Notes under the pieces: generated by a model
What the model saw: only the letters and a program-made list of their open reading frames with translations
Databases searched by the model: none
Told to the model about the DNA's origin: nothing
Source: Naegleria gruberi
Lineage: Eukaryota
Reading direction: 5' to 3' (one strand)
Assembly: GCA_000004985.1 (NCBI GenBank)
Contig: GG738912.1
Length of the DNA: 64,000 nt
In this document: positions 24,730 through 62,513 of the stretch, piece after piece
How the letters are laid out: every line of letters starts with the position of its first letter
Numbering within the stretch: the first letter of the stretch is position 1
Translations under genes and position numbers: made by a program

Positions 24730-24803
24730 TACCGACAATGGGGCTCGAACCCACGACCCCAGGATTAGAAGTCCTGTGCTCTATCCAACTGAGCTATGAC
24801 GGC
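24730..24803 (-). tRNA. tRNA-Arg (anticodon TCT)
   Basis: The minus strand reads GCCGTCATAGCTCAGTTGGATAGAGCACAGGACTTCTAATCCTGGGGTCGTGGGTTCGAGCCCCATTGTCGGTA. It folds as a cloverleaf with a CTTCTAA anticodon loop and a TTCGAGC T-loop. The acceptor stem has one mismatch. A T-run follows the 3' end immediately. Confidence 0.85.
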
Positions 24804-32131: not shown

Positions 32132-34696
32132 TCAATGAATCATGGTCAACCATAAAAATACAATCATGATTGAAGCAAAACTCATTAAACCAGAAAAGTA
32201 ATTGTATGAGTGCATTCCCAACGAAACAATTGGCGAAACTGCACGATTTTGACACTTCTCTCCAGAGGTATTATTCAAGCAAAGGCAAACATTCTTATCA
32301 ATACAGATACCAATAGAAGAACACACCTCAGGGCTTGCTTGCATCACATCAAAACACGTAAAATTTTGACAATTATTTCCATAATATCCATCCAAACAAG
32401 TGCAATTATTGAAACTTGAACAAAATCCATGTCCAGAGCAAACTCTTGAATCATTCTTTGAGATTCCAAGGCAATCAAATGATTCACATTTTGAGCCGTA
32501 ATATCCCTTAGAACATGTACAATTGTTGTGGCTTGAGCATATTCCATGACTAGAACAAGTTGATGGATTTAAAGAACTCAATCCATAACATGAATATTGA
32601 CTGCAATCTGAACCTGAATATCCTATAAAGCAAGTACAATTGTTGAAACTGGAGCAAATACCATGTGCGGAGCAGACTGATTCAGCATTCTTGGAAATAT
32701 CAAAGCAATTGTAATGTTCACAAGTTGCTCCATAATAACCTTCGAGTTGACATGAGCAGTTATTGTAACTTGAACAAATTCCTCGAGCAGAGCAAACAGT
32801 TGGATCATTGGAGGACTTTCCAGAGCAATTAAATTGTTCACAATTAGCTCCATAATATCCATCCTGACACAGACATTGGTCAACTTGTAAACATTTTCCG
32901 TGTCCTGAGCAAACAGAAGGATTATCTTGAGGAGTTCCATAACAATTGAATAGTTGACAAGCAGCTCCATAGTAACCATTTGAGCAATTGCAAGTATTAT
33001 AATCAGTGCATAAACCATGGGATGAGCAAACAAGTGAGTCATTTGATTCAAGACCAAAACATTTGAATGATTGGCAAGATTGACCAAAATAACCAGTATT
33101 ACATGAGCAATTATTAAAAGTAACACATTTACCATGAGCAGAACAAACTGAAGGATCCATTGAATTCACACCAAAACAATCAAAGAATTCACAATTAGTT
33201 CCGTAATACCCAGTTGAGCAAGTGCAATTTTCAAGTGAAGAACAAACACCATTTCCAGAACAAACCGATGCATTTCTCCAATTCACTCCATTACAATTGA
33301 AATCTTCACAATTTTCTCCATAATATCCTTCATCAACATTACAAGAACATTGATTATGAGTGGTGCAATTTCCTCTTCCAGAACAAACACCAAAATCTTG
33401 GTTCGTCTTTCCAAAACATTGAACATGACACAATCCATCAATTAGAGCATGTGTTTCCTCACAAAAAGCAGTCAACTTTCTAATAGCATGGTTTCCAGCA
33501 TCTGAGATATAGATTTCACTCAAACTTCTCAATTGTCGTATGGCAAGGTTAACTGGATTATTCAATTGAGCATCAGTTGATAAACCACCATCTCCACTGA
33601 AGCCAACACTTGAAGTTCCTGCAATTGTGACAATGATTCCATTTGAAAAAACTTTTCTAATTCGATTGTTACCAGAATCGGCCAAAAACATTTCACCACT
33701 AGACGAAACAACAAGTCCTTTTGGAGAGGAAAGCTGTGCACTTGTTGCCTGACCACCATCTCCACCAAAACCACTTCCAGTTCCAATAACTGCATTGATA
33801 ATTCCTGAACTTTGTTTAATTCTTCTCACAACATTATATAAACTATCAACAAAGAATACATCGAGGTCTGAATTGACTGCAATTTGATAAGGAATTCCAA
33901 GCCATGCATTAATTCCCAAACCACCATCTCCCAAATATGAATTAGTCTGTCCTCTACCAGAAACATCATACAAGCCATTGGCATAAACCTTTCTGATCAT
34001 GTTATTTTCAGTGTCAGTAAATATCAACTCTCCATTTGGGCTTAAACATAGACCTCGAATGACATTGAACCATCCGAATGCATTACCATCTCCTGGAGAG
34101 GTATATCCTCTACCTCCATCTCCTACAAAAGGTCTAATATAACCAGTATTGAGATCGAGTCTTCTTACTACATTGTTAAAAGTATCGGCAATGTATAAAT
34201 CACTATTTGATGGGCTGAGTGAGAGACCTTGAGGGGAGAAGAATTGGCAGTTTACAGCTGGTCCGTTATCACCAGAATAACCTTGTGTTCTTGATCCAGC
34301 AATAGTTTGAATAGTTCCATTTAAATATACCTTTCGAATAATATTGTTGGTTGAATCTGAGAGGTAAACTTCGCCACTCTCTGAAACAGCAACACCCTGG
34401 GGAGAACTAAGCATTGTCTCAATGGCCAAACCACCATCACCATTATAACCTGCGCTACCTGTCCCAGCAATTGTTGAGATATTGTAACGTGGAGCCATTA
34501 TTTCACATTCAGAACCAAAATAACCAACATTACATGAACATGCGTTATTGGCTTGACATAATCCATTACCAGAGCAGACAGCTGGTTCTTGATCTGTTTT
34601 ACCAAAGCATGTGAAGGTTATGTTGGTAGCTTGCAAAAGCGTGGCCAAAAAGATCAACAATATGATTGTTGAGAGTAAAGAGTTGGCATTTGACAT
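32132..34696 (-). CDS. Type I membrane protein with NHL-repeat beta-propeller and about 12 tenascin/teneurin-type EGF repeats; about 855 aa
   Basis: The probable start is ATG 34696 (MSNANSLLSTIILLIFLATLLQA, a signal peptide). The track ORF extends further 5' to 34885. The NHL blades read YNGDGGLAIETMLSSPQGVAVSESGEVYLSDSTNNIIRKV. The reiterated EGF modules read CSGNGVCSSLENCTCSTGYYGTNCEFFDCFG, encoded by about 93-nt tandem units across 32300-33420. A C-terminal TM segment is FASIMIVFLWLTMIH. Confidence 0.7.
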   Translation of the reverse strand: MSNANSLLSTIILLIFLATLLQATNITFTCFGKTDQEPAVCSGNGLCQANNACSCNVGYFGSECEIMAPRYNISTIAGTGSAGYNGDGGLAIETMLSSPQGVAVSESGEVYLSDSTNNIIRKVYLNGTIQTIAGSRTQGYSGDNGPAVNCQFFSPQGLSLSPSNSDLYIADTFNNVVRRLDLNTGYIRPFVGDGGRGYTSPGDGNAFGWFNVIRGLCLSPNGELIFTDTENNMIRKVYANGLYDVSGRGQTNSYLGDGGLGINAWLGIPYQIAVNSDLDVFFVDSLYNVVRRIKQSSGIINAVIGTGSGFGGDGGQATSAQLSSPKGLVVSSSGEMFLADSGNNRIRKVFSNGIIVTIAGTSSVGFSGDGGLSTDAQLNNPVNLAIRQLRSLSEIYISDAGNHAIRKLTAFCEETHALIDGLCHVQCFGKTNQDFGVCSGRGNCTTHNQCSCNVDEGYYGENCEDFNCNGVNWRNASVCSGNGVCSSLENCTCSTGYYGTNCEFFDCFGVNSMDPSVCSAHGKCVTFNNCSCNTGYFGQSCQSFKCFGLESNDSLVCSSHGLCTDYNTCNCSNGYYGAACQLFNCYGTPQDNPSVCSGHGKCLQVDQCLCQDGYYGANCEQFNCSGKSSNDPTVCSARGICSSYNNCSCQLEGYYGATCEHYNCFDISKNAESVCSAHGICSSFNNCTCFIGYSGSDCSQYSCYGLSSLNPSTCSSHGICSSHNNCTCSKGYYGSKCESFDCLGISKNDSRVCSGHGFCSSFNNCTCLDGYYGNNCQNFTCFDVMQASPEVCSSIGICIDKNVCLCLNNTSGEKCQNRAVSPIVSLGMHSYNYFSGLMSFASIMIVFLWLTMIH

Positions 34697-35069
34697 TTTT
34701 AATTGATGTTTGTCCTGAATCTTTCCAGTGGAGCTTTTATAACATGGCCATGGATGAACCGTTGAAAGTGAAATTGGACACTTGCAAGTGTCGTTGGAGC
34801 TCAGAAATTGTCGTTTGATTAATGAAAAGTAATTTTTTGGATTGGCATTTCCATTTAATGAAAGCACTTGTTGGTTCATCTTCAACGTTTCATTTTCATG
34901 AAATTACAACGGAAAATCGTTCCATTGTATTCAACTCAATTGATTTTGTATTTTTTCTAATTTCCAAATATGGACTAATTTCTTTTAAGGAAAATATAAA
35001 ACAATACAGAGAAAAACGAGATCTGAAACTGGAGCGAAATGTTGATAGCATTCTATTGATTCATCTGAC

Positions 35070-37655
35070 TCATTCATTTTTCTTCAATATTGCTTCCATC
35101 AACTCATCACTGATTCCATCTTCCAGCTCATCTATTTCCTCTGCATGTCCCATTAAATTCAAAATATACTTAATTCCTGTATAAAACTCTTTCAATGGAA
35201 TTCTGAGAGGTGACTTGTTGATTGAGCAGCACAGTAATCTAGTAATGTAATTTCTCAATTTGATATCAATACTTCCATATAAATTTTCAATGATTTTGCT
35301 GATGAATTGATGAACTTTCTCCTCTTGGTTTAAAATCATCCAATCGAAAAAGGTTTTCTCCTCAACTTCCAAATCAGTATTTATGAGCATGAATAAATAT
35401 ATACATCCTAGAGAGTAGATATCAACTCTTTCATATAAATTATTATTGGAACGTGTTTTTTCGAATAGTTCAGGAGCTGCATATTCTCTTGTGCCTTGAA
35501 CTAGAGTAGTTCTTACAAGATCCAAATCAGCAATTTTACATTCGTCATGATCTGAGATTCGTGGCACCACTTTATCTTCGATTCTGTAGATTAAAATGTT
35601 TTGAGGTTTCAAATCTCTGTGAATTATTCCATTTTGATGTAAATAAATGCATCCCTTGAGAATATCTCTGAATAGCATTGTAATTTCCTTCAGGGATAGG
35701 TTTCTTTGTGACTCTATGTACTGTTTCAAATTTTGTTCAGCTAATTCCATAATTACAAAATAAAAATTATCCAATGATTGATAGACGACATCATATTCCA
35801 AATATCTAACCACATTGGGATGATCAAATTCTTTTGCTTTCTTGAAAGCTTCCATTAGCCTTGTTAAATCATTCATTATTGAACTCTCTCTGTATGTTTT
35901 CAAAGCAACAATACGACCTAGTTTTTTATCCATAACTTTGTCAACCACGCCTTTCCCACATCCTATGCCTCTTTCAAGGAATATAAATCTGTCTTTTTCG
36001 TTGATAATTTTCGTCAAACTACTTTGATAACTTATGAGTGTTGGTATATTATTGAGCTGTATAGTTTCATTCTTATTATTTAATGAAATATCTTGAATTT
36101 CACCTTTCAAGAATTGTAAAACATTCTCCAGAATTGTTTTATACAAATAGCAATTCAACCTTTTGGTTGTATCTCTTTGTATCATTGTAATTATACATCT
36201 ACTCAAGATATCAGTTACTCCAAAATTAGTATTAATTGTCTTGTTGAGTATTTTTCCAATTGCATAATGTAATTTCAATTCCCCATCATTTGTTGTCGAA
36301 ACAGAGGAGAAATATTTTCCAAAGGTAGTAAAATACATGTAATCATCATCATATTTAGATATATCTGAATCATTTAAAAATAGTTCATCTAACTGTAATG
36401 GACAGTTTGTAAATAATTTCAAAAGTATACATCCCAATGAGAACAAATGACCATTGTTAATTTGTTTTTGGTTATTACCATTCCTAGGAGCTTCAACTAA
36501 GCTTTCAGGTGGCATATATGGCACCTTTCTAACTGCCATTAATGGGTAACTATCTATCGCCTTTGCTGTGTTAAAGTTAATGATTTTGTAATAATCTTGA
36601 ACTTTTACAATATTTTTAGGATCCAAATCTCTGTGTAAAGTATAGTGTTCATTAATTGAACTGACAGACGTCAACACCTTGATAAATATCTCAATTATTT
36701 CTATTATTTTATCTTTTGAAATGAATCCATCTCTATAAAACCCTTCTTCATTATTTCTTGTAATATAATCTGATAATGATTGCTCTCCAAGTTCCATCAC
36801 TGAATACAAGTGACCACCAATTGTGTCACATTCAAAGTATTTAATCTTTCCTTCAATGTCTGTTTTCAATAATTTGATGAGCTCTCTTGTTGATTCTTCG
36901 TTTTTTTCAGCTTCGTATTTTAATTTTATGGCCCTCAATGTTTTCGATTTTTTGAGAAATACTTTGAAAACAGTTCCTTCGCCTTCATATCCTAATATTG
37001 ATATAAAATCATAATCACTCTTGAAATGGTTATAAAAAAGATTGAGGCATCTGAATATTCGTGAAAAATCACCAAAATAAATGTCATATTTTGAGAGTTT
37101 GTAATTGTCGAATGTATTCTCAGTCTCCAGCCAGATAGTTGCAAATATTAATATCTGATTGATTTCCTTTTTAGAATAAAATGATTTTTCAAACTTGTCT
37201 GAAATTCTTTCCACACTCCTTTTCAAATCTTTCAAAATGGTTGACTGTGAAGGATTTTCTTCAAGAAATTTATCCAATCTGAAACAAAATAAATAATAAT
37301 CACCTGTTTTTATGGTTGGCAACTCATCAATGGAGGGTTCTAAATTTTTCAACTGTTTCAAGATTTGGAAAATAATTAGTTTTTCAACAAATTCGGACGA
37401 ATAGGTTGGATTCGTAAAATTGAAAAAGGAGTTTCGTTTTGATTTTGGTTCAACATTGGGCAATATGACACAATTGTATAAATCTTTTTCATCACCAAAA
37501 TTTCGAGAATACTTGTCGAGAACATTTCTCGATAATTTTGTGTGAAGATTTTCAACAACTGATTCGTCAATGTCGAGAGAGAATGTTTCATCACGGATTT
37601 GTGTTTGTGGCTGAGCATGATCAAACCAAACCAGTGAAAGAAACTTGTCAAACAT
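35070..37655 (-). CDS. Tandem protein kinase-like protein of 861 aa. It has an N-terminal pseudokinase-like domain and a C-terminal Ser/Thr-kinase-like domain.
   Basis: Domain 1 has GYEGEGTVF, LRAIKLK and LHRDLDPKN (the catalytic Lys is replaced), and NFN stands in place of DFG. Domain 2 has GIGCGKG, RIVALKTY, IIHRDLKPQNILI, ADLDL (in place of DFG) and GTREYAAPE. Confidence 0.65.
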   Translation of the reverse strand: MFDKFLSLVWFDHAQPQTQIRDETFSLDIDESVVENLHTKLSRNVLDKYSRNFGDEKDLYNCVILPNVEPKSKRNSFFNFTNPTYSSEFVEKLIIFQILKQLKNLEPSIDELPTIKTGDYYLFCFRLDKFLEENPSQSTILKDLKRSVERISDKFEKSFYSKKEINQILIFATIWLETENTFDNYKLSKYDIYFGDFSRIFRCLNLFYNHFKSDYDFISILGYEGEGTVFKVFLKKSKTLRAIKLKYEAEKNEESTRELIKLLKTDIEGKIKYFECDTIGGHLYSVMELGEQSLSDYITRNNEEGFYRDGFISKDKIIEIIEIFIKVLTSVSSINEHYTLHRDLDPKNIVKVQDYYKIINFNTAKAIDSYPLMAVRKVPYMPPESLVEAPRNGNNQKQINNGHLFSLGCILLKLFTNCPLQLDELFLNDSDISKYDDDYMYFTTFGKYFSSVSTTNDGELKLHYAIGKILNKTINTNFGVTDILSRCIITMIQRDTTKRLNCYLYKTILENVLQFLKGEIQDISLNNKNETIQLNNIPTLISYQSSLTKIINEKDRFIFLERGIGCGKGVVDKVMDKKLGRIVALKTYRESSIMNDLTRLMEAFKKAKEFDHPNVVRYLEYDVVYQSLDNFYFVIMELAEQNLKQYIESQRNLSLKEITMLFRDILKGCIYLHQNGIIHRDLKPQNILIYRIEDKVVPRISDHDECKIADLDLVRTTLVQGTREYAAPELFEKTRSNNNLYERVDIYSLGCIYLFMLINTDLEVEEKTFFDWMILNQEEKVHQFISKIIENLYGSIDIKLRNYITRLLCCSINKSPLRIPLKEFYTGIKYILNLMGHAEEIDELEDGISDELMEAILKKNE

Positions 37656-37842
37656 TTTTTAACAACTGAAAATTTGCATGCACGACATGTGACTTTCATA
37701 AGAATATTCTCAAGAATTTCCAAAAAGTTTTTAGACGAAATATTTAGGATAGGTTTCCAGCGAGGCTTCTGGAGCCTTTCTCATTGAATAACAACTCAGA
37801 GAGCTCTCATTGTGTGTCTCAGTGATAGATTTTTTTTAAGAT

Positions 37843-40288: not shown

Positions 40289-40625
40289 ACTATAAATTCC
40301 GTCTTCTTTTGTGTTGTAATGGATTCGAATATAATTTTCAATAATTCAATAAGCAAATTTCAGAACACAAATTTTTATCCAAACCGCAGTCATGTAAATA
40401 ACCTGGGAAGTGATACAAAAGTTTCATTCTGCTGTCTCGAGTCATTCCCCTTTTGCAATAGGGACATTTGAAAAGTGACGCATCATATTTCATCATTAAA
40501 AAAATTAAGCATTTGTTTCGTTTTTAAACCACCGGCGGTTGATTCATCTTCTACAAAATCAACAAACAACAAATACGCGTCCTTGTCGGTTGTGCTTTCA
40601 ATTTTTAAACGAAACTAAACTAAAG

Positions 40626-42101
40626 ATGAAGAGTCTGTTAGTTCTTCTCATGTTATTAGGAGTGGCTACTCTTCTAATGATGATCACTCCAGCAAGCCTT
40701 CAAAAAGAGCTTCCAATTACAATTCAATCATCAACAAAGGACAAGGTTATGGATGAATATTTAAAACAAATTACAGTCGAAACTATTGATTCAAATGATG
40801 ATTCAGGTAACAAGACAGTTAATTGTTGTAATGTTTGCCCAGTTCCAAAGATTATTATTATTCCAAAATATACAACAATCAAAGTTCCAATTAATATTCC
40901 ATATCCAGTATTGAAACCAATTCCACCACATCACGATGATGATGTTGTTGATAAATGTCCATCTGATTATCAATTCGTTCCACCAAACAAGTGTTCTAAA
41001 ACAATAATTATTGAAAAGAAGAAGAATTGTCCAATTGGATTTATTAGAATTGGTGAAACTGAATGTTTGAGATTGGTTATTATTCATAATAATATTCCAC
41101 CAATGAAAGTTGTTTGTCCACCTGGATATATTCCATTTGTAATTTCAAAGAATTCAGAGGAATATTTGAAATTGAAGGATTTACCAAAGGATTTACCTTC
41201 TAATGATTTCTTCTTTAAGAATGATACAAAGAATACTGTTTTAGGATGTAAGAAGAGTAAGAAAATTCATATTGATGAGGAAATTCCACATTGGACTTGT
41301 CCAAAGGGTTATTATTATCATTCTCCTTTCCATTGTGTTAAATCAGTTGAATGTCCAAAGAAGGGTGGTTGGATCAAGTTGACCGATGGTCGTTGCATTC
41401 GTACTTTATTCAAATGTCCACGTGGTTATAAGAAAGTTGGTAGACATGGGTTGACCTGTATCAAGATTAACATGAAATGTCCAAAGGGATACAGACAATC
41501 AAAGAAGAATCCACGTTTATGTTTAAAGACAAAGATCATTGTCAAGATTAAGTGTCCAAAGAAATCAATTTACAGTGAAGAAAAGAAGACCTGTATCTGG
41601 AAGAAATGTGCTACTGTCAGATGTAATGGAGCTTTGAAATGTCCAAAGGGTCAAATCTTGGCTCTCAAATCCAAGAAGGATTGTTGTCCATCATGCGTTC
41701 CATGTGCATGCTCTGCTGAATACCATCCAGTTTGTACCAAGGATGGTGTCACTGTTTTCAATTTGTGTTCTGCCAAATGTTTGGGATTGGAAGTTAAACA
41801 TGAAGGTGAATGTAAGATTACTGAAATTATCAAGATCACCAAGACATGCCCACCATGTGATCAATGTAAGAACGTTCCAAAGAAACCAGTTTGTGGTGTT
41901 GATGGTGTGACCTATCCAAACACTTGTGTTGCCAAGTGTGTCACTTCTGGTAAATTCGAAATGAAGAGAAAGGGCAAATGCAGTCCTGCTGATTGTGACG
42001 AAGCTGAATCCAATAAGACTGTCTCTGAATTCCTTCCATTCTTTGAACGTGTTTTAAAGTCTGAATTGATCAATGCCAAACAAAGAAAGCAAAAGAAATA
42101 A
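40626..42101 (+). CDS. Secreted cysteine-rich protein with two C-terminal Kazal-type inhibitor domains
   Basis: The ATG at 40626 gives MKSLLVLLMLLGVATLLMMITPASL (a signal peptide). CPKGY-type Cys modules follow. The Kazal units are CACSAEYHPVCTKDGVTVFNLCSAKCLGLEVKHEGEC and CKNVPKKPVCGVDGVTYPNTCVAKCVTSGKFEMKRKGKC. The track ORF starts earlier, at 40539. Confidence 0.7.
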   Translation: MKSLLVLLMLLGVATLLMMITPASLQKELPITIQSSTKDKVMDEYLKQITVETIDSNDDSGNKTVNCCNVCPVPKIIIIPKYTTIKVPINIPYPVLKPIPPHHDDDVVDKCPSDYQFVPPNKCSKTIIIEKKKNCPIGFIRIGETECLRLVIIHNNIPPMKVVCPPGYIPFVISKNSEEYLKLKDLPKDLPSNDFFFKNDTKNTVLGCKKSKKIHIDEEIPHWTCPKGYYYHSPFHCVKSVECPKKGGWIKLTDGRCIRTLFKCPRGYKKVGRHGLTCIKINMKCPKGYRQSKKNPRLCLKTKIIVKIKCPKKSIYSEEKKTCIWKKCATVRCNGALKCPKGQILALKSKKDCCPSCVPCACSAEYHPVCTKDGVTVFNLCSAKCLGLEVKHEGECKITEIIKITKTCPPCDQCKNVPKKPVCGVDGVTYPNTCVAKCVTSGKFEMKRKGKCSPADCDEAESNKTVSEFLPFFERVLKSELINAKQRKQKK

Positions 42102-51336: not shown

Positions 51337-52818
51337 TTAAATCTTACGGAGTTTATTAACACAGGGACAAACTCTTCTTCTATGTTCCGAATTTTGACAT
51401 CTGAATCTACTATTTCTCGTGCCTAGCGTACAATAATTTTCATCAAATAAAGGTGATGAAGAATCCAATACAGGATTTCTTTCATAGGTACATTTACAAT
51501 TTGGAGAGAATTTCTTAATTTCCTCACATCGATTAATGTAAGGGAAGAATCTACCATCACAAATAGCACCTCTCTTCTCACAACAAGTTGCACAACTTTC
51601 ACCCTTTTCACATGCAACACTTTCAACATTCTTCAATTCGTAGAGTGAGAATTTGTGAGATGGTGGGGTGGAAGGAAGCGTCAGAGTATCATGAGTAAAG
51701 GCATATTCAGGATCATCCTGAGTGGCTCTACCAGCCATAGCGGAAATAGGAATCGGATTTGTATCATTGCAAGGGAAGAATAAAGAATTTGGACATTGTT
51801 CCGAATGGAACAAGACGTATAATTGTGATTGTGTTTGTGGTTCGAAACAATGAGGGAAATCTACATTATTTCTCTCAATATTTCTCTCGTTACCCACTGA
51901 AGACATGACACCAATATGTTTCATTAATTGGTATCTGTAAAGATAGAATAATCTATCCTTGAAATATTCCTTTCCATAATCGTGGAATCTATGGAAAAAT
52001 TCCTCCAAAAGCCAATCGATAGGTATATTGGTATATTGTTGCAATTCCATGAAATGAATCAGTGCATTGAAATCCTTTCTTTGAATCATTACTCCATTCA
52101 TACCAAAAGAAAAACGTATTCCTGCCCAATCTCTTCCTTCTATTTCCAGTTGTGTTGCCTTCTCGAAAATTAATGAAAGGTGAGAGATTGCTCCAGGACA
52201 CATTATAAAATCATCCTCCATAATAACCACAGGAACATTTGATCTTGTCTTCATATTTTCATGAAACAATCTAATCATATCATAAAAATCGTTTGATTGT
52301 AACCTCTTCCTTTCCGACAAGTCGGAATTCATAAACATATTATAACTATATCGTTTGTGAATTAAATAGGTTTGTGACTCGTGTGTATTTTGTCTCACAG
52401 TTCGTTCCACTTCTTCTCTAAAAGGTTCTCCTTTTGAATTTAGCACCACAATACAAGGGAAGAATAGCCTTTGTTTTACTCTAGCTAGGGAATCGACTGT
52501 CTTTCCGAGATAATAGAATTTATCACCCTCTATTGGTGGTCTTGGTGCAGTCAGAATTAAAAACACAACTTGGCATCTATCATCCAAAATATGCTCTATT
52601 TTGTAATTGTTTTCATCCACTTCAAAAAGCAGATTTGTAGCAGGTGATATTATTGGTTTTAATCTAGGTTTAATCAACACTATTTTCAATATAATAATAA
52701 AAGCAAATAAAAACAGTATTTGTGAAGCAACTAGGAGTAGCAGAGATTTAGTCTTGGTAAAAGTTCGAAATAAAGGTAAATACCTCTGCTTTAAATCATA
52801 TATAAATGTATTTATCAT
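51337..52818 (-). CDS. Type II membrane glycosyltransferase, MGAT4 (GnT-IV, GT54)-like, with a C-terminal Cys-rich domain (493 aa)
   Basis: The N-terminal signal anchor is LLLVASQILFLFAFIIILKIVLI. The blocks VVFLILTAPRPP...YLGKTVDSLARV, VPVVIMEDDFIMCPGAISHL and NIPIDWLLEEFF parallel the MGAT4 conserved regions (…IQLEDDII…, …PIDWLLDHIL…). Confidence 0.55.
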   Translation of the reverse strand: MINTFIYDLKQRYLPLFRTFTKTKSLLLLVASQILFLFAFIIILKIVLIKPRLKPIISPATNLLFEVDENNYKIEHILDDRCQVVFLILTAPRPPIEGDKFYYLGKTVDSLARVKQRLFFPCIVVLNSKGEPFREEVERTVRQNTHESQTYLIHKRYSYNMFMNSDLSERKRLQSNDFYDMIRLFHENMKTRSNVPVVIMEDDFIMCPGAISHLSLIFEKATQLEIEGRDWAGIRFSFGMNGVMIQRKDFNALIHFMELQQYTNIPIDWLLEEFFHRFHDYGKEYFKDRLFYLYRYQLMKHIGVMSSVGNERNIERNNVDFPHCFEPQTQSQLYVLFHSEQCPNSLFFPCNDTNPIPISAMAGRATQDDPEYAFTHDTLTLPSTPPSHKFSLYELKNVESVACEKGESCATCCEKRGAICDGRFFPYINRCEEIKKFSPNCKCTYERNPVLDSSSPLFDENYCTLGTRNSRFRCQNSEHRRRVCPCVNKLRKI

Positions 52819-53401
52819 CTTTTAAATTGTGTTATTAAATTATATTATTAATGATGATGGAAATATAAATTAAAATAGGTTGCTGATAATATTGGGCGAT
52901 GATACAGCAAAATGTATATGCTCGGATTATATTTCCTCTGTAAATTGTTCAGAGAGAGAAATATTAAATCAAGAACTTCCTGATGTTAAAGATGATAACA
53001 CTCAAATCTTAAGAAGAATGATGATGAACCCAAAAATCCACACTATCCAGATATTGTTAAATATATCAAAATTATCCTCTCCGGTAGTAGAAGAATCGAC
53101 GAATGAGAGAGAGAATATGTTCTTTACTTTTTTTCTCTAAATTTCCTTCATCAACATAATTTGCGATGTGTGTAACACAGAGAGGAACATCACTCGATGC
53201 TTGATTGTTTGTGCGTTTCATTCCCGCCCTTTCTAGAAAATCTTTATAAAACAGGTATAACGATAGGTAGTCGTTGGAACTGTAAGTTTTTGTAAAGTAC
53301 AGATTATTTTGCATTGAAATGAAGATATGAGAGATACACAGTTCAGAACAAGTGTGTTTTTGAAAATCAATTTTTAATTAAATCCTAGAAAAGATGTGAG
53401 T

Positions 53402-54882
53402 TTAAATAATTCCTGGAATGAAAATGTACTTGACAGTTTCACAATATTTGTCCCAATCTTCCTTATACTTTCTCTTACATCTTTCAGAATCTCTGTGATA
53501 ACGATGGATAATCATACAGAAGAAGAAGATGAAATAAAAGTATGGAATGAAACTTCCAAATCCACAGATCAAACCCCATGTCAAGCCCATTGTGGTATCC
53601 ATAGTATAGTTCAATTTACGAGCATAAGCCCACCAACCATCAACCAACAATTCACTACCTGCCTTAGTCTTGAGACATTTGGCATTATCTGGCAAAGTAC
53701 CATATGGCAATTGAGGGAAAGTCTTTCTTTCTCTGAAAGTACCATTCTTCTTCATACGGAATCTGTTACGTTGACTTTGAGCAGTATCCCAGAAATAGTA
53801 AGCAACAAAGAGCAAGATGAAAATACAGAGATTGTACCACCAAGGCATGTTAATTTCTTCACCCTTCTTGTAAATGTAAATGGATGAGAAACAGTAAACG
53901 AATGGAACACCAGCCAAATTCCAGTAAATCAACAACCAACCCCATTTTTCATAAAAGATATCCCATGATGATGGAACACATTCTTCACCCTTCATAATGG
54001 CATTGACATAAATTGTGTGGGCAGTTAACATGAAAATCATTGGTGTGGTAATGTATCCGAGTTCTTCATATTGTTTGGCAGCTGCAGAGAGTGTCAACAA
54101 GAAGAGCAAGACCCATGAAATTCTGGCTTCAGTGAACATTTTCAAATCCAAAGATCCTAATCTAGGATTCAAAACAGCTCCCATGAAAAAGTCATAGAGG
54201 AAACTTCCAGACAATCTGTGTTCATTTCCAGTTGCAATAGTATAGAAATAGGTAAAGATAGCAACAAGATTACTGAAAATAATGGCAACAGTTAAAATTG
54301 GAGCAAAATTATCATAGAGCATTGAGACTGGAGCAATTCCAGTAACATACAAGATACCAATGAGTGGCAATGTAATATACCAGACGTGGATGGCATTACA
54401 ATTGTAAATCAACTTTTTGCCACCTTCATGTTCGAGTGGTAAACCTTCATATAAGTCACCAGGAATTAACCAACCCAAAACACCTTCATAAACGATGAAT
54501 CCCATATAAATATTAAAAGCAGTCCAATTTGGTTGAGCAATTTCCCATGCAGCAGACCAATCTACATCCCAAAACCACACTAATTTAGAATCAGTAAATT
54601 CCAAACAATACCAATAATAGTATGGAATGATATGTGAAATTATCATAACAGCAAGACAACCTATTGGTCCACCAAATTCTCTGGCTGCCATATTCAGTAG
54701 AAGCAAAATTATCAGCAAGATACAAACAATTTCACACGAAACGAAACCGAAACAAAACGAAAAATAATTCACACCAATAAATATTCGAATCAACATTCAC
54801 TCTATAACCTACCTTCCTCCTTCTCTTCCTTCTTATTGACCCTTGTTGTGGCCTTCTCTTGTTGTGTTGTTGTCGAAGCCAT
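53402..54882 (-). CDS. Sterol reductase (ERG4/ERG24/DHCR7 family), join(54882..54813, 54684..53402)
   Basis: The family signature is LLVDGWWAYARKLNYTMD. The C-terminus is KYKEDWDKYCETVKYIFIPGII. Eight or more TM helices are present. Exon 1 (MASTTTQQEKATTRVNKKEEKEE) is joined by a 128-nt GTAGGT..GGCAG intron (54812-54685) to AREFGGPIG.... Confidence 0.75.
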
Positions 54883-55736: not shown

Positions 55737-56379
55737 ATGGCACAAAGAAGAGTAATGAAGGATTTGACAACACTGCAACAAGTACCTATTGAAGGATTGA
55801 CTGCTGGACCGATCGGAGATGATGTTTTTAGTTGGAATGGGTATATTGATGGACCTGTAAGTGTTTGATGATTTAAATGTTGGAAATAATTGTATTTACT
55901 TGTTTTGGAACTAATTAGGTGGATACACCATATGAAGATGGAGTTTTTAAAGTCAAAATTACATTTCCAACTGATTATCCTTTCACTGCTCCACGATTGA
56001 GTTTTGGTAAGTTTATTGAACCAGTTGAAAATTCTATAAACTTTAATAGTGACACCAATTTATCATCCAAATGTAAATAGTGACGGGAAAGTTTGTCTCT
56101 CAATACTAGACAAGGACTGGAATCCCTCTGTAAATATATCACAAGTATTAATGAGTAAGTATTCGAAATATTATTTTGAAATATTCACTTGTAACAGCTG
56201 TACAATTACTACTCAAAGAACCAAATCCTGAAAGTGCAGTTCTTCCTAGCATTGGTAAACAATATGAGGATGATCGTGAAGCATTCAATAAGGAAGCTAG
56301 GAAACACACTCAGGAACATGCAAAGAAGAAAACAGAGGAAGAGAACAAAGAGGAAACACAGGAAAAAGAGGAGAAATAA
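55737..56379 (+). CDS. Ubiquitin-conjugating enzyme E2 (UBC4/5-UBE2D-like core with a K/E-rich C-terminal tail), join(55737..55856, 55919..56006, 56050..56154, 56198..56379)
   Basis: The spliced protein is [40 protein letters not shown]|[29 protein letters not shown]|[35 protein letters not shown]|[15 protein letters not shown].... The active site is HPN...GKVCLSIL. Three GTAAGT introns of 62, 43 and 43 nt are present. Confidence 0.8.
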
Positions 56380-56484: not shown

Positions 56485-57810
56485 ATGAGAGAAATTGTCA
56501 GTCTTTTTATTGGAGGATGTGGTAACAGGATTGGAAATTGTTTTTGGAAGGGTATTATGAGGGAACACAATATTGATACAAATACAGGAGAGAGGATTGA
56601 AGGATTTGAAGATGTTGAAGAAAATTTAAATATTTTCCTTGATGAGAGGGAAGATAAATTTGTGCCAAGAGTTGTGATGGCCGATCTGGAGGCTGAAACT
56701 ATTGAATCAATGATTAAGAATGAGAATTTATTGGAATCAAAGTTTGCTTCCTTTCAAAGATGTGGAAATGGAAATTGTTTCTCTAGGGGAATGTACACTG
56801 ATGGAGCTCTGCTTATTCGAAATATAATGGATCAAGCAAGGAAGAGTGTAGAACAGTGTGATTTCTTTGAAGGATTTCAAATGTTTCATTCCATAATTGG
56901 TGGATCTGGATCAGGGCTTGGTTCATTAGTTGTTTCGAAACTCAGAGAAGAATTCCCTGACAAAATGATGGCAACTGCTACTGTATTGCCATCAAATAAG
57001 GATGACTATGGATCTAGGTCTCTTTCACATTATAATGCTGGTCTATCCATGCATTATTTGGTAGAGAATACTGATTTTGTAACTTGTCTAAATAATGAGG
57101 CTCTTGGAAATATCTGTAATAGCAAATTAGGACTGGAGAATTATGGCTATGAACATATGAATAATTTAATCACTCAAGCAATTTGTGGTTTTACTAGTCC
57201 ATTAAGATTTTCAGGAATTTTAAATTCTTCATACAGAAAGCTTTCAACCAACCTCGTTCCATTTCCAAGACTACACTTTTTCACTGTATCTCACTCACCC
57301 TTCTGTCTGGGTGATACTGAACCAACAGTTGAGGGATTAACAAGTGATGTTTTTAATCAGACCAATCTACTGATAAGTATGGATCCAAGTTTAGGCCGTT
57401 ACATGACCAATATCATTACTTATCGTGACAATGAGCCGAATATTTCCATGATTGAGGAATATGTAAGAAAATTCAAAAAGGATAATGAAGCTATTTTCAA
57501 AGAATGGGTGCCAAACAATATTCACACTTCAGTATGTAAATCTATTTCACCAGATTGTCCAACCAAGAGCTCAGCAACAATGGTATCCAATACCAGTGCA
57601 ATCAAAACAGTTTTTAACAAGATTTCCGACCAATTTACTGTAATGTTCAGAAGAAGGGCGTTTCTGCACCAATATTTAGAAGATGGTATGGATGAGATGG
57701 AGTTTACAGAAGCGGAATCAAACTTTAATGATCTTCAATCTGAATATTATGATGATTGGGGTGCGTGGTGTGAAGAAGAGGAAGAAGGAGAGTATGATGA
57801 AGAGCCTTAG
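56485..57810 (+). CDS. Divergent tubulin-family protein (beta-like; 441 aa)
   Basis: The N-terminus is MREIVSLFIGGCGNRIGNCFW, against beta-tubulin [21 protein letters not shown]. The GTP-binding motif is SIIGGSGSGLGSLVVSKLREEFPDK, against [23 protein letters not shown]. The acidic C-terminal tail is EEEEGEYDEEP. Confidence 0.7.
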   Translation: MREIVSLFIGGCGNRIGNCFWKGIMREHNIDTNTGERIEGFEDVEENLNIFLDEREDKFVPRVVMADLEAETIESMIKNENLLESKFASFQRCGNGNCFSRGMYTDGALLIRNIMDQARKSVEQCDFFEGFQMFHSIIGGSGSGLGSLVVSKLREEFPDKMMATATVLPSNKDDYGSRSLSHYNAGLSMHYLVENTDFVTCLNNEALGNICNSKLGLENYGYEHMNNLITQAICGFTSPLRFSGILNSSYRKLSTNLVPFPRLHFFTVSHSPFCLGDTEPTVEGLTSDVFNQTNLLISMDPSLGRYMTNIITYRDNEPNISMIEEYVRKFKKDNEAIFKEWVPNNIHTSVCKSISPDCPTKSSATMVSNTSAIKTVFNKISDQFTVMFRRRAFLHQYLEDGMDEMEFTEAESNFNDLQSEYYDDWGAWCEEEEEGEYDEEP

Positions 57811-58027
57811 AACTAATAAACATGAAGCAACATTTTCTTGCAACTCAACCTCTCATTACTAATTAAGCCAATTGGGGATTGATATTAATTTTCAAACAAT
57901 AACAAAAACTTCACTAGTACTTTACTGTTCTGATCCTTCTTACTCATGTTAATAAAAACCAAACTTTCAAACACTTTCTCTTCTCCACGATTTGTCCAAA
58001 ACCAAAATCATATGGCTCGCCACGTTA

Positions 58028-58098
58028 CCGTCTCGGGAGGAATCGAACCTCCGTCAATGGATTCAAAGTCCACTATGCTACCATTACACCACGAGACG
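58028..58098 (-). tRNA. tRNA-Gln (anticodon TTG)
   Basis: The minus strand reads CGTCTCGTGGTGTAATGGTAGCATAGTGGACTTTGAATCCATTGACGGAGGTTCGATTCCTCCCGAGACGG. The acceptor stem is perfect. The anticodon loop is CTTTGAA and the T-loop is TTCGATT. T-runs lie downstream. Confidence 0.85.
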
Positions 58099-58362
58099 AG
58101 CACATTAAGGTTGATTATAATTTAGTTATTACACTCATGACCATTTTCAATCTGTACTGTATTTGCGTTTCATGTCCCTTTGCTAAATTACATTGTATAA
58201 GAAAGGACTTGGAACATATTGCCATTTACAATTCAAAACGTAGAAACATTTTTTCTTGCTCTTCCTCATTACTTATTAAGGCAATAGAAGATTTGGCGCC
58301 TTTAAAATTCACACTTTCAAACAATTTTTCACAAACAAAAAAACAACAACACCACAACCAAT

Positions 58363-60600: not shown

Positions 60601-62513
60601 TCAGGTTAATGACATTTTATACCAACAATTGATTTCTTCTAATTTTTTTTCAATAGAACTCAAAGTCAAATGTTCTTGTAAAGTTTCAACAAACGTTTCA
60701 CAATTGCGCAAAGTAGTGTTTGCTTGATGGGTGTTACCAAATACTTTTTGTTTGATTACTGACATCTTACCTTTAACAAAGTATACCTTCTCAGTCAATT
60801 CATGCAATTTTTCCCACATTTCAGAATTTTCCTCTGGTTGACTGAGTGAAATCTGATTGTTACTGAATGTGAATTTTTCACTGAAGAATGTTGACCTACT
60901 CACTACATCATGTACATTAACAGTAAACACGCCGTCTTGGTCAACTCTGCATTCAACACATATTTTATGGTTAGAGGCAGGCTTTTGATCAATTTTTATG
61001 ATTGAATTGGTTAGTAATTCTAACATTGAGCTAATTTCAGATTCTCCCTCTCTGAAGGTCAAATTAATCTCTTTCGTTTCGTCTGATGAATTTGTAACTG
61101 CCAATAGTTTTTTACAAGGCAAAGGTGTTCCCTTTTCCAGAACCTTAATTAAGGAATTATTTTGATATTCCTTAATTCGAATAGTTCTTGAAAGACATTC
61201 AGTAATAGGAATGGCTTGTTTTTGATAAAGATCATGAGCCAAGTAGGCAGCTCCATAACTAACGATATAAATTATGTCACTATTTTGTGGTCTAGTAATT
61301 GTCTTTAACAAGTCAACTCACTGTCAAGTTATTAAATCTTACTTACAACTCCAGGTAGTTCATCTTGCACCCAATCTTTCACAAATGGAATAAGAGATGA
61401 TCCTCCAACCATAAGAACCTCATTAATATCACATCCAAGTTCTTTAAATTTTGAAATTAAGGTCTGGACCCTTTTTTGGAACGCCTCCTCACAATCTCTC
61501 TTAAATTGCTCATAATTCACAGAAATAATCAAAGATAAATCATTCTCAGGAATCTCAATACTAAAGTATTCAACATTTCGTCTAGTTGAACATAAGGTTT
61601 CTTTCAAAATTCTTGCCTTTGCACTCAACTTGTGTTTAACTTCTTTCTTTAAATTATTCAACTGAGATGTCAATGATTTTTCTTCGAGTGTCATGGAAGA
61701 TGCTCCAAACCAAACAGGTTTAATGTAATTTTGGAAAACCAAATTATCAACATCAACACCTCCCAAAGTAGAATCTCCCTCAACCCATTTCACAATAAAT
61801 TCCAATTGACTATCATGATTTTTACAAACTTGAATGAGTGAAATGTCCAAAGTTCCACCACCAAAATCAAATACCAAGTAATTACCTTCCCCTCTTTGAG
61901 GATCTTTCTTAAAATAGTAATAGGCAGCTGCGGATGGTTCTGGTAATAATTTCAAAACCTTAATGTTTGATTTTCTAGCTGCTTCCAAAGTTGCATTCTT
62001 TTGGAAAACTCCAAATTCAGCTGGAACTGTAATGACTGCTGGAATTTCTTGATCTTTTCTAAATACGGTTACATTTTCAAGAATTTTTTGAGCTACCAAT
62101 TCTGGAGAAATGTCAAGAAACTTTCCGTTTTCAAATACGAAACGACATGTGGCAAGTTGGTTCTCTTGATTAGCAACTATTTTGTAATCTAATTTCTTTT
62201 CATTTTCTTGAATGACGGCCACTTGATTGTCTTTTCTATCCAAACATTAAGAATAGTCAAAGTTTCGTCAACTAACTTACCTTTTACCAATGATTCGTTT
62301 AGTTTCTGTAGCGTAGAGAACACCATTAACATCTTCCAATTCTCCAACACCAGTTTGAAATGATTCTCCGTTTATACAGCTTACATTCACAACAGAGTTT
62401 TGGAAATTACATGATCCTTGTGAAATATATTTCGTATATCCAAATTCATCAATGTACGAAACAATGGTTGTGCTAGTACCTAGATCAATACCAATACACT
62501 TAATATCACTCAT
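60601..62513 (-). CDS. Divergent Hsp70-family protein, join(62513..62281, 62235..61347, 61302..60601), about 607 aa
   Basis: Exon 1 reads MSDIKCIGIDLGTSTTIVSY...TKRIIGK. A 45-nt intron follows. Exon 2 carries the NBD motifs AVITVPAEF, LVFDFGGGTLDISL, GGVDVDN and VLMVGGSSLIPFV. A 44-nt intron follows. Exon 3 reads IYIVSYGAAYLAHDL plus a divergent substrate-binding domain with no EEVD. The splice phases were verified. Confidence 0.75.

Follow-up and report, generated by a model that had tools for sequence, protein, structure and literature searches.

The multi-tubulin hypothesis goes back to Naegleria, whose flagellar and mitotic tubulins have by now been assigned. Beyond these, the genome of Naegleria gruberi encodes "bonus" highly divergent tubulins (Fritz-Laylin 2010, Fig. 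S4B, as summarised in Fulton 2022, PMC9081340), and what these additional alpha and beta paralogs do is stated to be an open question (Fulton 2022, PMC9081340). Here we analyse one of the "bonus" betas (JGI 53354, 44804, 44710 and 44840; PMC9036621), namely the protein XP_002670724.1, which is encoded at positions 56485 to 57810 of a 64,000-nucleotide stretch of N. gruberi DNA (contig GG738912.1 of assembly GCA_000004985.1; hereafter the window). The gene is already known, being annotated as a beta-tubulin in GenBank/RefSeq and present in published trees. What we add is a residue-level description, the odd motifs that the protein has in common with one paralog, and a controlled negative result for orthologs.

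The same genome contains two other betas that are likewise divergent, the mitotic betas 55748 (XP_002677854.1) and 55900 (XP_002671129.1), which are 57–58% identical to human beta-1 (Velle 2022, PMC9036621). As in XP_002670724.1, the otherwise invariant Trp of their LHWY motif is lost, with Ser or Thr in the mitotic betas and Gln in XP_002670724.1; Velle 2022 (PMC9036621) takes up this position for the mitotic pair. However, the mitotic betas keep VVEPYN and two other motifs, all three of which are changed in XP_002670724.1. Furthermore, N. fowleri and N. lovaniensis possess orthologs of them at 88% identity, while XP_002670724.1 has no ortholog. Outside Naegleria, Tetrahymena possesses the lineage-specific non-canonical beta-like tubulins BLT1–6 beside its canonical beta (Eisen 2006; Pucciarelli 2012, PMC3382179; PMC9294176). 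BLT1 and BLT4 serve particular nuclear and spindle microtubules and not cilia (PMC3382179; PMC9294176). Divergent beta paralogs can thus be functional and specialised, and the BLT proteins are the closest functional precedent. They are an analogy only: the BLT proteins do not form one clade with XP_002670724.1, and in our tree the divergent betas of other organisms do not group with XP_002670724.1 with any support. In addition, the BLT proteins are devoid of the tail polymodification motifs, whereas XP_002670724.1 keeps a Glu-rich tail. Compared with canonical beta (pig P02554; JGI 83350), the protein has the same fold and length, the MREI start, the beta-type Lys, the residues N204, Y222 and N226 and helix H12, and like canonical beta it has no alpha-type S9-S10 insertion. 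It differs in T1, T3, T4, T5, H2-S3, H10 and the M-loop, all of which are altered.

Results and Discussion

The gene is the following element of the window, as supported by the listing of open reading frames (ORFs), a 100% protein match, Pfam and AlphaFold2/Foldseek:

56485..57810, + strand: single-exon coding sequence of a divergent beta-family tubulin

The ORF runs uninterrupted from ATG to TAG over 441 codons plus the stop. Its 441-residue product is 100% identical to the N. gruberi "beta-tubulin" XP_002670724.1 (EFC37980.1; UniProt D2VYW1). It can be aligned end to end with residues 1–437/440 of solved beta-tubulins, and from this collinearity with full-length proteins it follows that the gene is intronless, as an earlier note on this DNA had claimed. 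That note had also called the product tubulin-fold, pointing to the MREI start, a GGSGSG motif and an acidic C-terminal tail, and had remarked on a T1 loop of the form GGCGNRIG. All of these are indeed present in the ORF, with GGSGSG at residues 139–144, and the fold itself is well supported. The Pfam families Tubulin (PF00091, E = 1.2e-44, residues 3–212) and Tubulin_C (PF03953, E = 1e-19, residues 261–381) both match above their gathering scores. The AlphaFold2 model has a mean pLDDT (predicted local distance difference test) of 80.6 and a predicted template modelling score (pTM) of 0.83, and its best 50 fold matches in the PDB, found with Foldseek, are all entries with beta-tubulin chains (template modelling scores of 0.85–0.90).

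The 60 PDB sequence matches listed are likewise beta-tubulin without exception (60/60; best 381 bits). In BLAST, XP_002670724.1 is 41–43% identical, at 316–339 bits, to most betas (pig, yeast, Chlamydomonas, the N. gruberi flagellar beta 83350, the N. gruberi mitotic betas 55748/55900 and the N. fowleri mitotic betas). Human TBB1 scores lower (39%, 290 bits), and the alphas of human and N. gruberi reach 30–31% and 196–207 bits. Among the 150 best cluster representatives, those of full length (380–500 residues) are all nearer to beta than to alpha, except for three that are alpha-like. At T7/H8, tubulin structures have a catalytic Glu in alpha and a Lys in beta. XP_002670724.1 carries the beta-type Lys252 and not the alpha catalytic Glu, in a column that is invariant in our alignment A1. 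The 8-residue S9-S10 insertion of the alpha type is absent, and the region has merely a 2-residue insertion compared with pig beta.

In a neighbour-joining (NJ) bootstrap tree, calculated with a numpy/NJ implementation, the protein falls within the beta clade (betas and divergent betas) as opposed to alpha with 100% bootstrap. It is joined to its N. gruberi paralog XP_002671050.1 (P0027 in our searches), again with 100%, and has no other supported grouping. The published maximum-likelihood (ML) tree of 1,191 tubulins, which is rooted with gamma, places 53354 and 44804 together (support 100/1/100) on the beta side, as a long-branch, N. gruberi-only group with no member from N. fowleri or Acrasis kona (Velle 2022, PMC9036621). 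Of the six tubulin families that the earlier note had proposed for comparison, our direct comparison covered alpha and beta, and gamma is covered as the outgroup of the published tree.

The correspondence between accessions and JGI models comes from scaffold sizes. The tree files of Velle 2022 (PMC9036621) place the divergent betas 53354 on scaffold_68, 44804 on scaffold_65, 44710 on scaffold_47 and 44840 on scaffold_74. The four divergent N. gruberi betas that we recovered lie on contigs of 238,573 bp (the scaffold that carries XP_002670724.1), 250,472 bp, 339,217 bp and 222,118 bp, and the mitotic betas on scaffold_20 (441,990 bp) and scaffold_64 (259,034 bp). All six scaffolds fit a single descending size order, and therefore XP_002670724.1 is probably JGI 53354 and its sister XP_002671050.1 probably JGI 44804. 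We conclude that, judged by its sequence, XP_002670724.1 belongs to the beta-tubulin family, and we regard this identity part of our overall reading as near certain.

Alpha and beta tubulins are commonly quoted as about 40% identical. XP_002670724.1 is 43.5% identical to pig beta and equally to the N. gruberi flagellar beta (JGI 83350), which is itself 90% identical to pig beta. Its identity to the mitotic betas 55748 and 55900 is 41–43%; these are 66% identical to the flagellar beta and 88% to their N. fowleri orthologs. We next defined the beta-invariant columns from nine betas (pig, human B1, yeast, Chlamydomonas, N. gruberi flagellar, two N. gruberi mitotic and two N. fowleri mitotic). XP_002670724.1 keeps 127 of these 194 columns (65.5%) and changes 67, which bears out the claim of the earlier note that many conserved positions are changed. 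The same note had taken the protein for a non-canonical and not a housekeeping tubulin, an idea that would have been contradicted by tight clustering with canonical betas. No such clustering is seen: at 41–43% identity the protein groups with its N. gruberi paralog alone, NJ and ML placement agree with the non-canonical assignment, and canonical betas are encoded elsewhere. Indeed, both the flagellar beta (at three loci) and the mitotic betas are encoded in the genome outside the window.

Two identities were considered and rejected. A housekeeping or canonical beta is excluded by the 43.5% identity and by the position outside the canonical beta grouping in the NJ tree. Membership of the mitotic beta clade is incompatible with 41–43% identity, with a separate clade in both the NJ and the published trees and with the missing N. 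fowleri and N. lovaniensis ortholog. In addition, none of the quantitative PCR primers of the mitotic tubulins 55748, 55900, 58607 and 55745 occurs in the window. Given the primer result and the identity of about 43% to 83350, 55748 and 55900, XP_002670724.1 is therefore distinct from the flagellar beta as well as from both mitotic betas.

We searched for relatives in three ways. A word-indexed search covered 5.8 billion proteins, 1.84 billion cluster representatives were scanned exhaustively with HMMER, and a third search used a profile made from the two paralogs. In all three XP_002671050.1, an N. gruberi protein of 435 residues that is encoded on a different scaffold and is about 50% identical to XP_002670724.1, was the sole relative above the canonical-beta background. 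With the profile, this paralog scores 898 bits, and the next matches, canonical betas with a single domain, reach only about 420 bits. The two proteins have GGCGNRIG, IIGGSGSG and the rebuilt T5 and H2-S3 loops in common. At 53 columns both leave the beta-invariant residue, and at 29 of these 53 they have adopted the same derived residue. The shared derived residues include Q11G, Q15R, A97N, W101F, G140I, T143S, S176G, V179S, V180L and E181S and, in T7/H8, also P243S, D249S, L250Y and V255T. The paralog starts with MKDI instead of MREI and is 35% identical to pig beta.

No ortholog of XP_002670724.1 was found in the annotated proteomes of N. fowleri, N. lovaniensis and Willaertia, which were part of the same database as our positive control. 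In this control, the mitotic beta 55900 as query recovered N. fowleri proteins at 89% and 74%, N. lovaniensis at 88%, Willaertia magna at 72% and environmental sequences. Because the control does find Naegleria and Willaertia orthologs, the absence of one for XP_002670724.1 is meaningful. Searching the DNA of JGI metagenome contigs for IGGCGNRIG gave 10 matches, mostly on GC-rich contigs, and none of them matched a tubulin query in tblastn. The best reading of these data is that XP_002670724.1 is a lineage-restricted, fast-evolving beta-like tubulin.

Two further N. gruberi proteins were noticed in the course of these searches. The divergent beta XP_002670151.1 (P0323) has the T1 sequence GGCGNHIG and falls into one 90%-identity cluster with P0144, which has GGCGNQIG and is encoded on a 1,996-bp ENA metagenome contig; therefore at least one "bonus" beta is present in an environmental Naegleria relative, unlike XP_002670724.1. 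The "beta-tubulin" model XP_002673357.1 (P0146) has no N-terminal S1/T1/H1 and starts with MPKPIEATQTPP. Either this tubulin is truncated at its N-terminus, or the start of the gene model is wrong.

The changes in XP_002670724.1 are spread over the segments listed below. Their boundaries and their assignment to the nucleotide, longitudinal, lateral and outer surfaces, together with their contact roles, follow the general picture given by published tubulin structures (Nogales/Lowe; Nogales 1998, Lowe 2001) and were not computed from coordinates.

56512..56535, + strand: T1 loop, residues 10–17, GGCGNRIG in place of GQCGNQIG (Q11G, Q15R), motif in common with P0027
56728..56754, + strand: H2-S3 loop, residues 82–90, LLESKFASF replacing (I/L)FRPDNFVFG
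56758..56793, + strand: T3 loop, residues 92–103, RCGNGNCFSRGM in place of canonical QSGAGNNWAKGH
56887..56925, + strand: T4/tubulin signature, residues 135–147, HSIIGGSGSGLGS (G140I and T143S compared with canonical)
56986..57036, + strand: T5 loop, residues 168–184, LPSNKDDYGSRSLSHYN, with a 2-residue insertion
57202..57258, + strand: T7 loop and H8, residues 240–258, LRFSGILNSSYRKLSTNLV
57289..57342, + strand: M-loop region, residues 269–286, SHSPFCLGDTEPTVEGLT
57649..57747, + strand: H11-H12 outer surface, residues 389–421, RRRAFLHQYLEDGMDEMEFTEAESNFNDLQSEY
57748..57807, + strand: acidic C-terminal tail, residues 422–441, YDDWGAWCEEEEEGEYDEEP

In the T1 loop, XP_002670724.1 departs from the GQCGNQ(I/V)G consensus of the beta family. 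The alteration at residues 10–17 that the earlier note had pointed out is real and concerns two positions that are almost invariant, with Q11 found in 161/162 and Q15 in 160/162 canonical-like beta matches. Among 79 representatives of divergent beta-like clusters, Q11 is kept in 45 and replaced in 34 (by Gly in 10), and Q15 is kept in 36 and is Arg in 10. The complete GGCGNRIG occurs independently in a "tubulin beta chain-like" protein of the wasp Prorops nasuta (XP_066594709.1, P0234), which scores 337 bits with canonical beta and 196 bits with the Naegleria protein. All full-length representatives compared are nearer to canonical tubulins than to XP_002670724.1. We therefore rejected the motif as a unique signature: replacements of Q11 and Q15 recur in divergent betas, and the T1 change is a recurrent mark rather than a unique invention. 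In FtsZ, a glycine-rich T1 is the normal state, so that, within the superfamily, a Gly at position 11 does not preclude GTP binding.

Further along the pocket, T3 retains its phosphate-loop Asn, which is aligned to pig N99, while A97N and W101F are common with the paralog; AlphaFold confidence is low at residues 96–101. The tubulin signature PROSITE PS00227 reads [SAG]-G-G-T-G-[SA]-G. At residues 138–144 XP_002670724.1 has I-G-G-S-G-S-G and thus fails the pattern at positions 1 and 4. T5 has lost the canonical VSDTVVEPYN and with it the Glu that aligns with pig E181; here, too, the paralog has the same changes, and AlphaFold confidence is low. The residues aligned to pig N204, Y222 and N226, which in established tubulin structures contact the guanine, are all kept, and N204, Y222, N226 and N97 are invariant columns in our alignments A1 and A3. 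The Asp/Glu of T2 is also kept, as is most of the glycine-rich T4. Taken together, the sequence suggests that XP_002670724.1 probably still binds a guanine nucleotide.

The surfaces that make polymer contacts are changed to very different degrees. The H2-S3 loop has 0% identity with pig beta and 80% with the paralog. H10 is 7% identical to pig beta and 60% to the paralog, while the corresponding values are 50% and 75% for T7 and 56% and 89% for H8. The T7-H8 sequence LNSSYRKL contains the paralog-shared replacements named above and keeps Lys252, the beta-type minus-end Lys. The M-loop is 4 residues shorter than in canonical beta and is conserved in neither direction (20% with pig beta and just 13% with the paralog). 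The best-conserved part is H11-H12, with 70% identity to pig beta in H12 and 67% in the H11-H12 linker. The 20-residue C-terminal tail holds 11 Asp/Glu and no Lys/Arg and has no terminal Tyr.

The gene lies in ordinary surroundings. The GC content of the ORF is 0.358, and the profile along the window is 0.30–0.36. Upstream, at about 55,900–56,379 on the + strand, is the gene of an E2 ubiquitin-conjugating enzyme. Short introns distribute its coding sequence over different frames (ORF pieces 56049–56231 and 56176–56379, with the UQ_con match on the last piece). Between its end and the tubulin ATG lies a very AT-rich spacer of about 105 bp. A tRNA-Gln(TTG) at 58027–58099 on the − strand, opposite to the tubulin gene, follows 217 bp downstream of the stop codon, and a tRNA-Arg(TCT) is found upstream in the window at 24730–24803 (−). 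Other genes of the window have no cytoskeletal link (53405–54796 (−), 51340–52821 (−), 32135–34903 (−), 35073–37658 (−), 40509–42098 (+) and 61335–62246 (−)); their products, as listed, are an ERG4/ERG24 sterol reductase, a GT18/MGAT4-like glycosyltransferase, a teneurin-like EGF/NHL repeat protein, a protein kinase, a Kazal-domain protein and an Hsp70-like fragment. A Ser-rich protein is also among the neighbours. A tblastn search of the 64-kb window with 11 alpha and beta references revealed no second tubulin or partner gene, the sole match being this ORF. Neighbourhood and GC content fit a normal chromosomal locus.

The reading frame speaks for a functional gene. At the local base composition the stop probability per codon is 0.074, which gives a probability of about 2e-15 for 441 open codons, and the open frame is therefore not due to chance; the other five frames of 56485..57810 contain 18–50 stops. 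GC by codon position is 0.43/0.36/0.28, which is a coding-type gradient. Of all single-base changes in the ORF, 5.0% create a stop, and after 0.25 neutral substitutions per site the frame would still be open with a probability of about 6e-8. Because of these 5% the roughly 50% divergence of the paralogs could not have been reached neutrally without nonsense mutations. The marks of a processed or decayed pseudogene are missing: there is no frameshift, premature stop or truncation, and the frame is collinear with full-length beta-tubulin from Met1 to the stop. The intact ORF, the GC bias by codon position and the confident AlphaFold model thus argue against a dead pseudogene.

We therefore favour, and consider reasonably probable, the reading that this is an intact beta-like gene whose product probably binds nucleotide, pairs with alpha and has a minor, specialised or regulatory role outside the bulk canonical lattice. 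The mechanism in this reading is much less certain than the identity of the gene. The protein would fold and keep guanine nucleotide binding through the retained base contacts, and its beta-type face would pair with an alpha-type partner, possibly one of the divergent alpha paralogs of N. gruberi, of which the genome has seven that are equally divergent (Fulton 2022, PMC9081340). T1, T3, T5, H10, T7/H8 and H2-S3 are rebuilt co-ordinately and in a manner common to both paralogs, and the M-loop is short and unconserved. Altered exchangeable-site loops and altered lateral elements make a poor fit for the canonical lattice, so that the protein, with changed chemistry at the exchangeable site and changed lateral contacts, would be unlikely to serve as a bulk subunit of canonical 13-protofilament microtubules. 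Most likely it would then act in some condition that has been sampled poorly, with a role that is minor, specialised or regulatory.

Several observations count against a working tubulin, and most of them would be expected of a relic, that is, of a beta-tubulin duplicate that no longer functions and drifts as a young or slowly decaying pseudogene with its frame still open. Searching the literature by accession and by JGI 53354, we found no expression, protein or localisation data: in the supplements of Velle 2022 (PMC9036621), 53354 appears in the tree files only, and the text of a 2024 RNA-seq preprint discusses flagellar and mitotic tubulins only. The models of the flagellar and mitotic tubulins bear the "estExt" prefix in their JGI names, and 53354 does not. 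By JGI naming practice, this is a weak hint that support by expressed sequence tags (ESTs) is missing. A relic would account for this lack of any literature or EST hint of expression. It would also account for the lack of orthologs in other species, which we count in favour of non-function or very low use given that the proteomes of N. fowleri, N. lovaniensis and Willaertia are in the database, and for the long branch in an N. gruberi-only clade. One third of the invariant beta positions are changed, among them Q11, Q15, G140 and the residue aligned to E181. With Q11 of T1 and the Glu aligned to the ribose-contacting T5 Glu both lost, nucleotide binding could be weak or absent, and AlphaFold confidence is lowest at T3, T5, T7/H8 and the H11-H12 linker. 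The sister paralog is missing about 18 residues that span the end of S2 together with T2 and H2, which gives it a degenerate look unless the gene model is in error; the gap is either a true deletion or a mis-modelled intron. Nevertheless, we hold the relic to be unlikely. An open frame of 441 codons, with divergence of about 50% and no nonsense mutation, and the coding-type GC gradient are hard to reconcile with drift. The paralogs have kept derived residues, and even entire rebuilt segments, in common, and the structural core, H11-H12 and the base contacts are retained in a fold that AlphaFold predicts confidently.

If the gene is functional, its product could instead be a minor beta isotype that co-polymerises into the normal microtubules of the flagellate, in basal-body triplets, parts of the axoneme or the cytoskeleton, a possibility that Fulton 2022 (PMC9081340) raises for the "bonus" tubulins. 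The H11-H12 surface, which is the motor and microtubule-associated protein site of canonical tubulin, is 67–70% conserved, and the Glu-rich acidic tail and the beta-type Lys252 are in line with such a role. However, the lateral elements are the least canonical of all (H2-S3 and the shortened M-loop), both longitudinal faces are rebuilt (T1, T3 and T5 on the one hand, H10 on the other), and Fulton 2022 (PMC9081340) judges the "bonus" tubulins unlikely to assemble typical microtubules. Furthermore, N. fowleri shares the conserved flagellar apparatus and has no ortholog. We regard this isotype as rather improbable. Improbable as well, in our view, is the idea that XP_002670724.1 and XP_002671050.1 form an N. 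gruberi-restricted beta-like subfamily that pairs only with one of the equally divergent alpha-like paralogs, giving a second tubulin system, of dimers or polymers, that is orthogonal to those of flagella and mitosis. The pocket (T1, T3, T5) and the longitudinal faces (T7/H8, H10) would then have been re-specified together, the product would not be a standard microtubule, and its use might fall into a state such as encystment or a cryptic sexual cycle. That the sequence is an artefact (a contaminant, a mis-assembly or a horizontally acquired gene) we consider scarcely credible. Nothing but the orphan status speaks for it, while the GC content and its local profile match the window, the gene sits inside a scaffold of well over 200 kb between an intron-containing E2 gene and a tRNA-Gln, and its closest relative is an N. 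gruberi gene on another scaffold.

Conclusion

Gene-editing tools are lacking for Naegleria (Fulton 2022, PMC9081340), and for this reason the finding by itself opens no new experiment. If XP_002670724.1 proved functional, it would show how far a beta-tubulin can drift and yet serve, given the Q11G and Q15R replacements, the loss of the T5 Glu and the short M-loop. In that case it might even reveal a use of the tubulin fold outside of microtubules.

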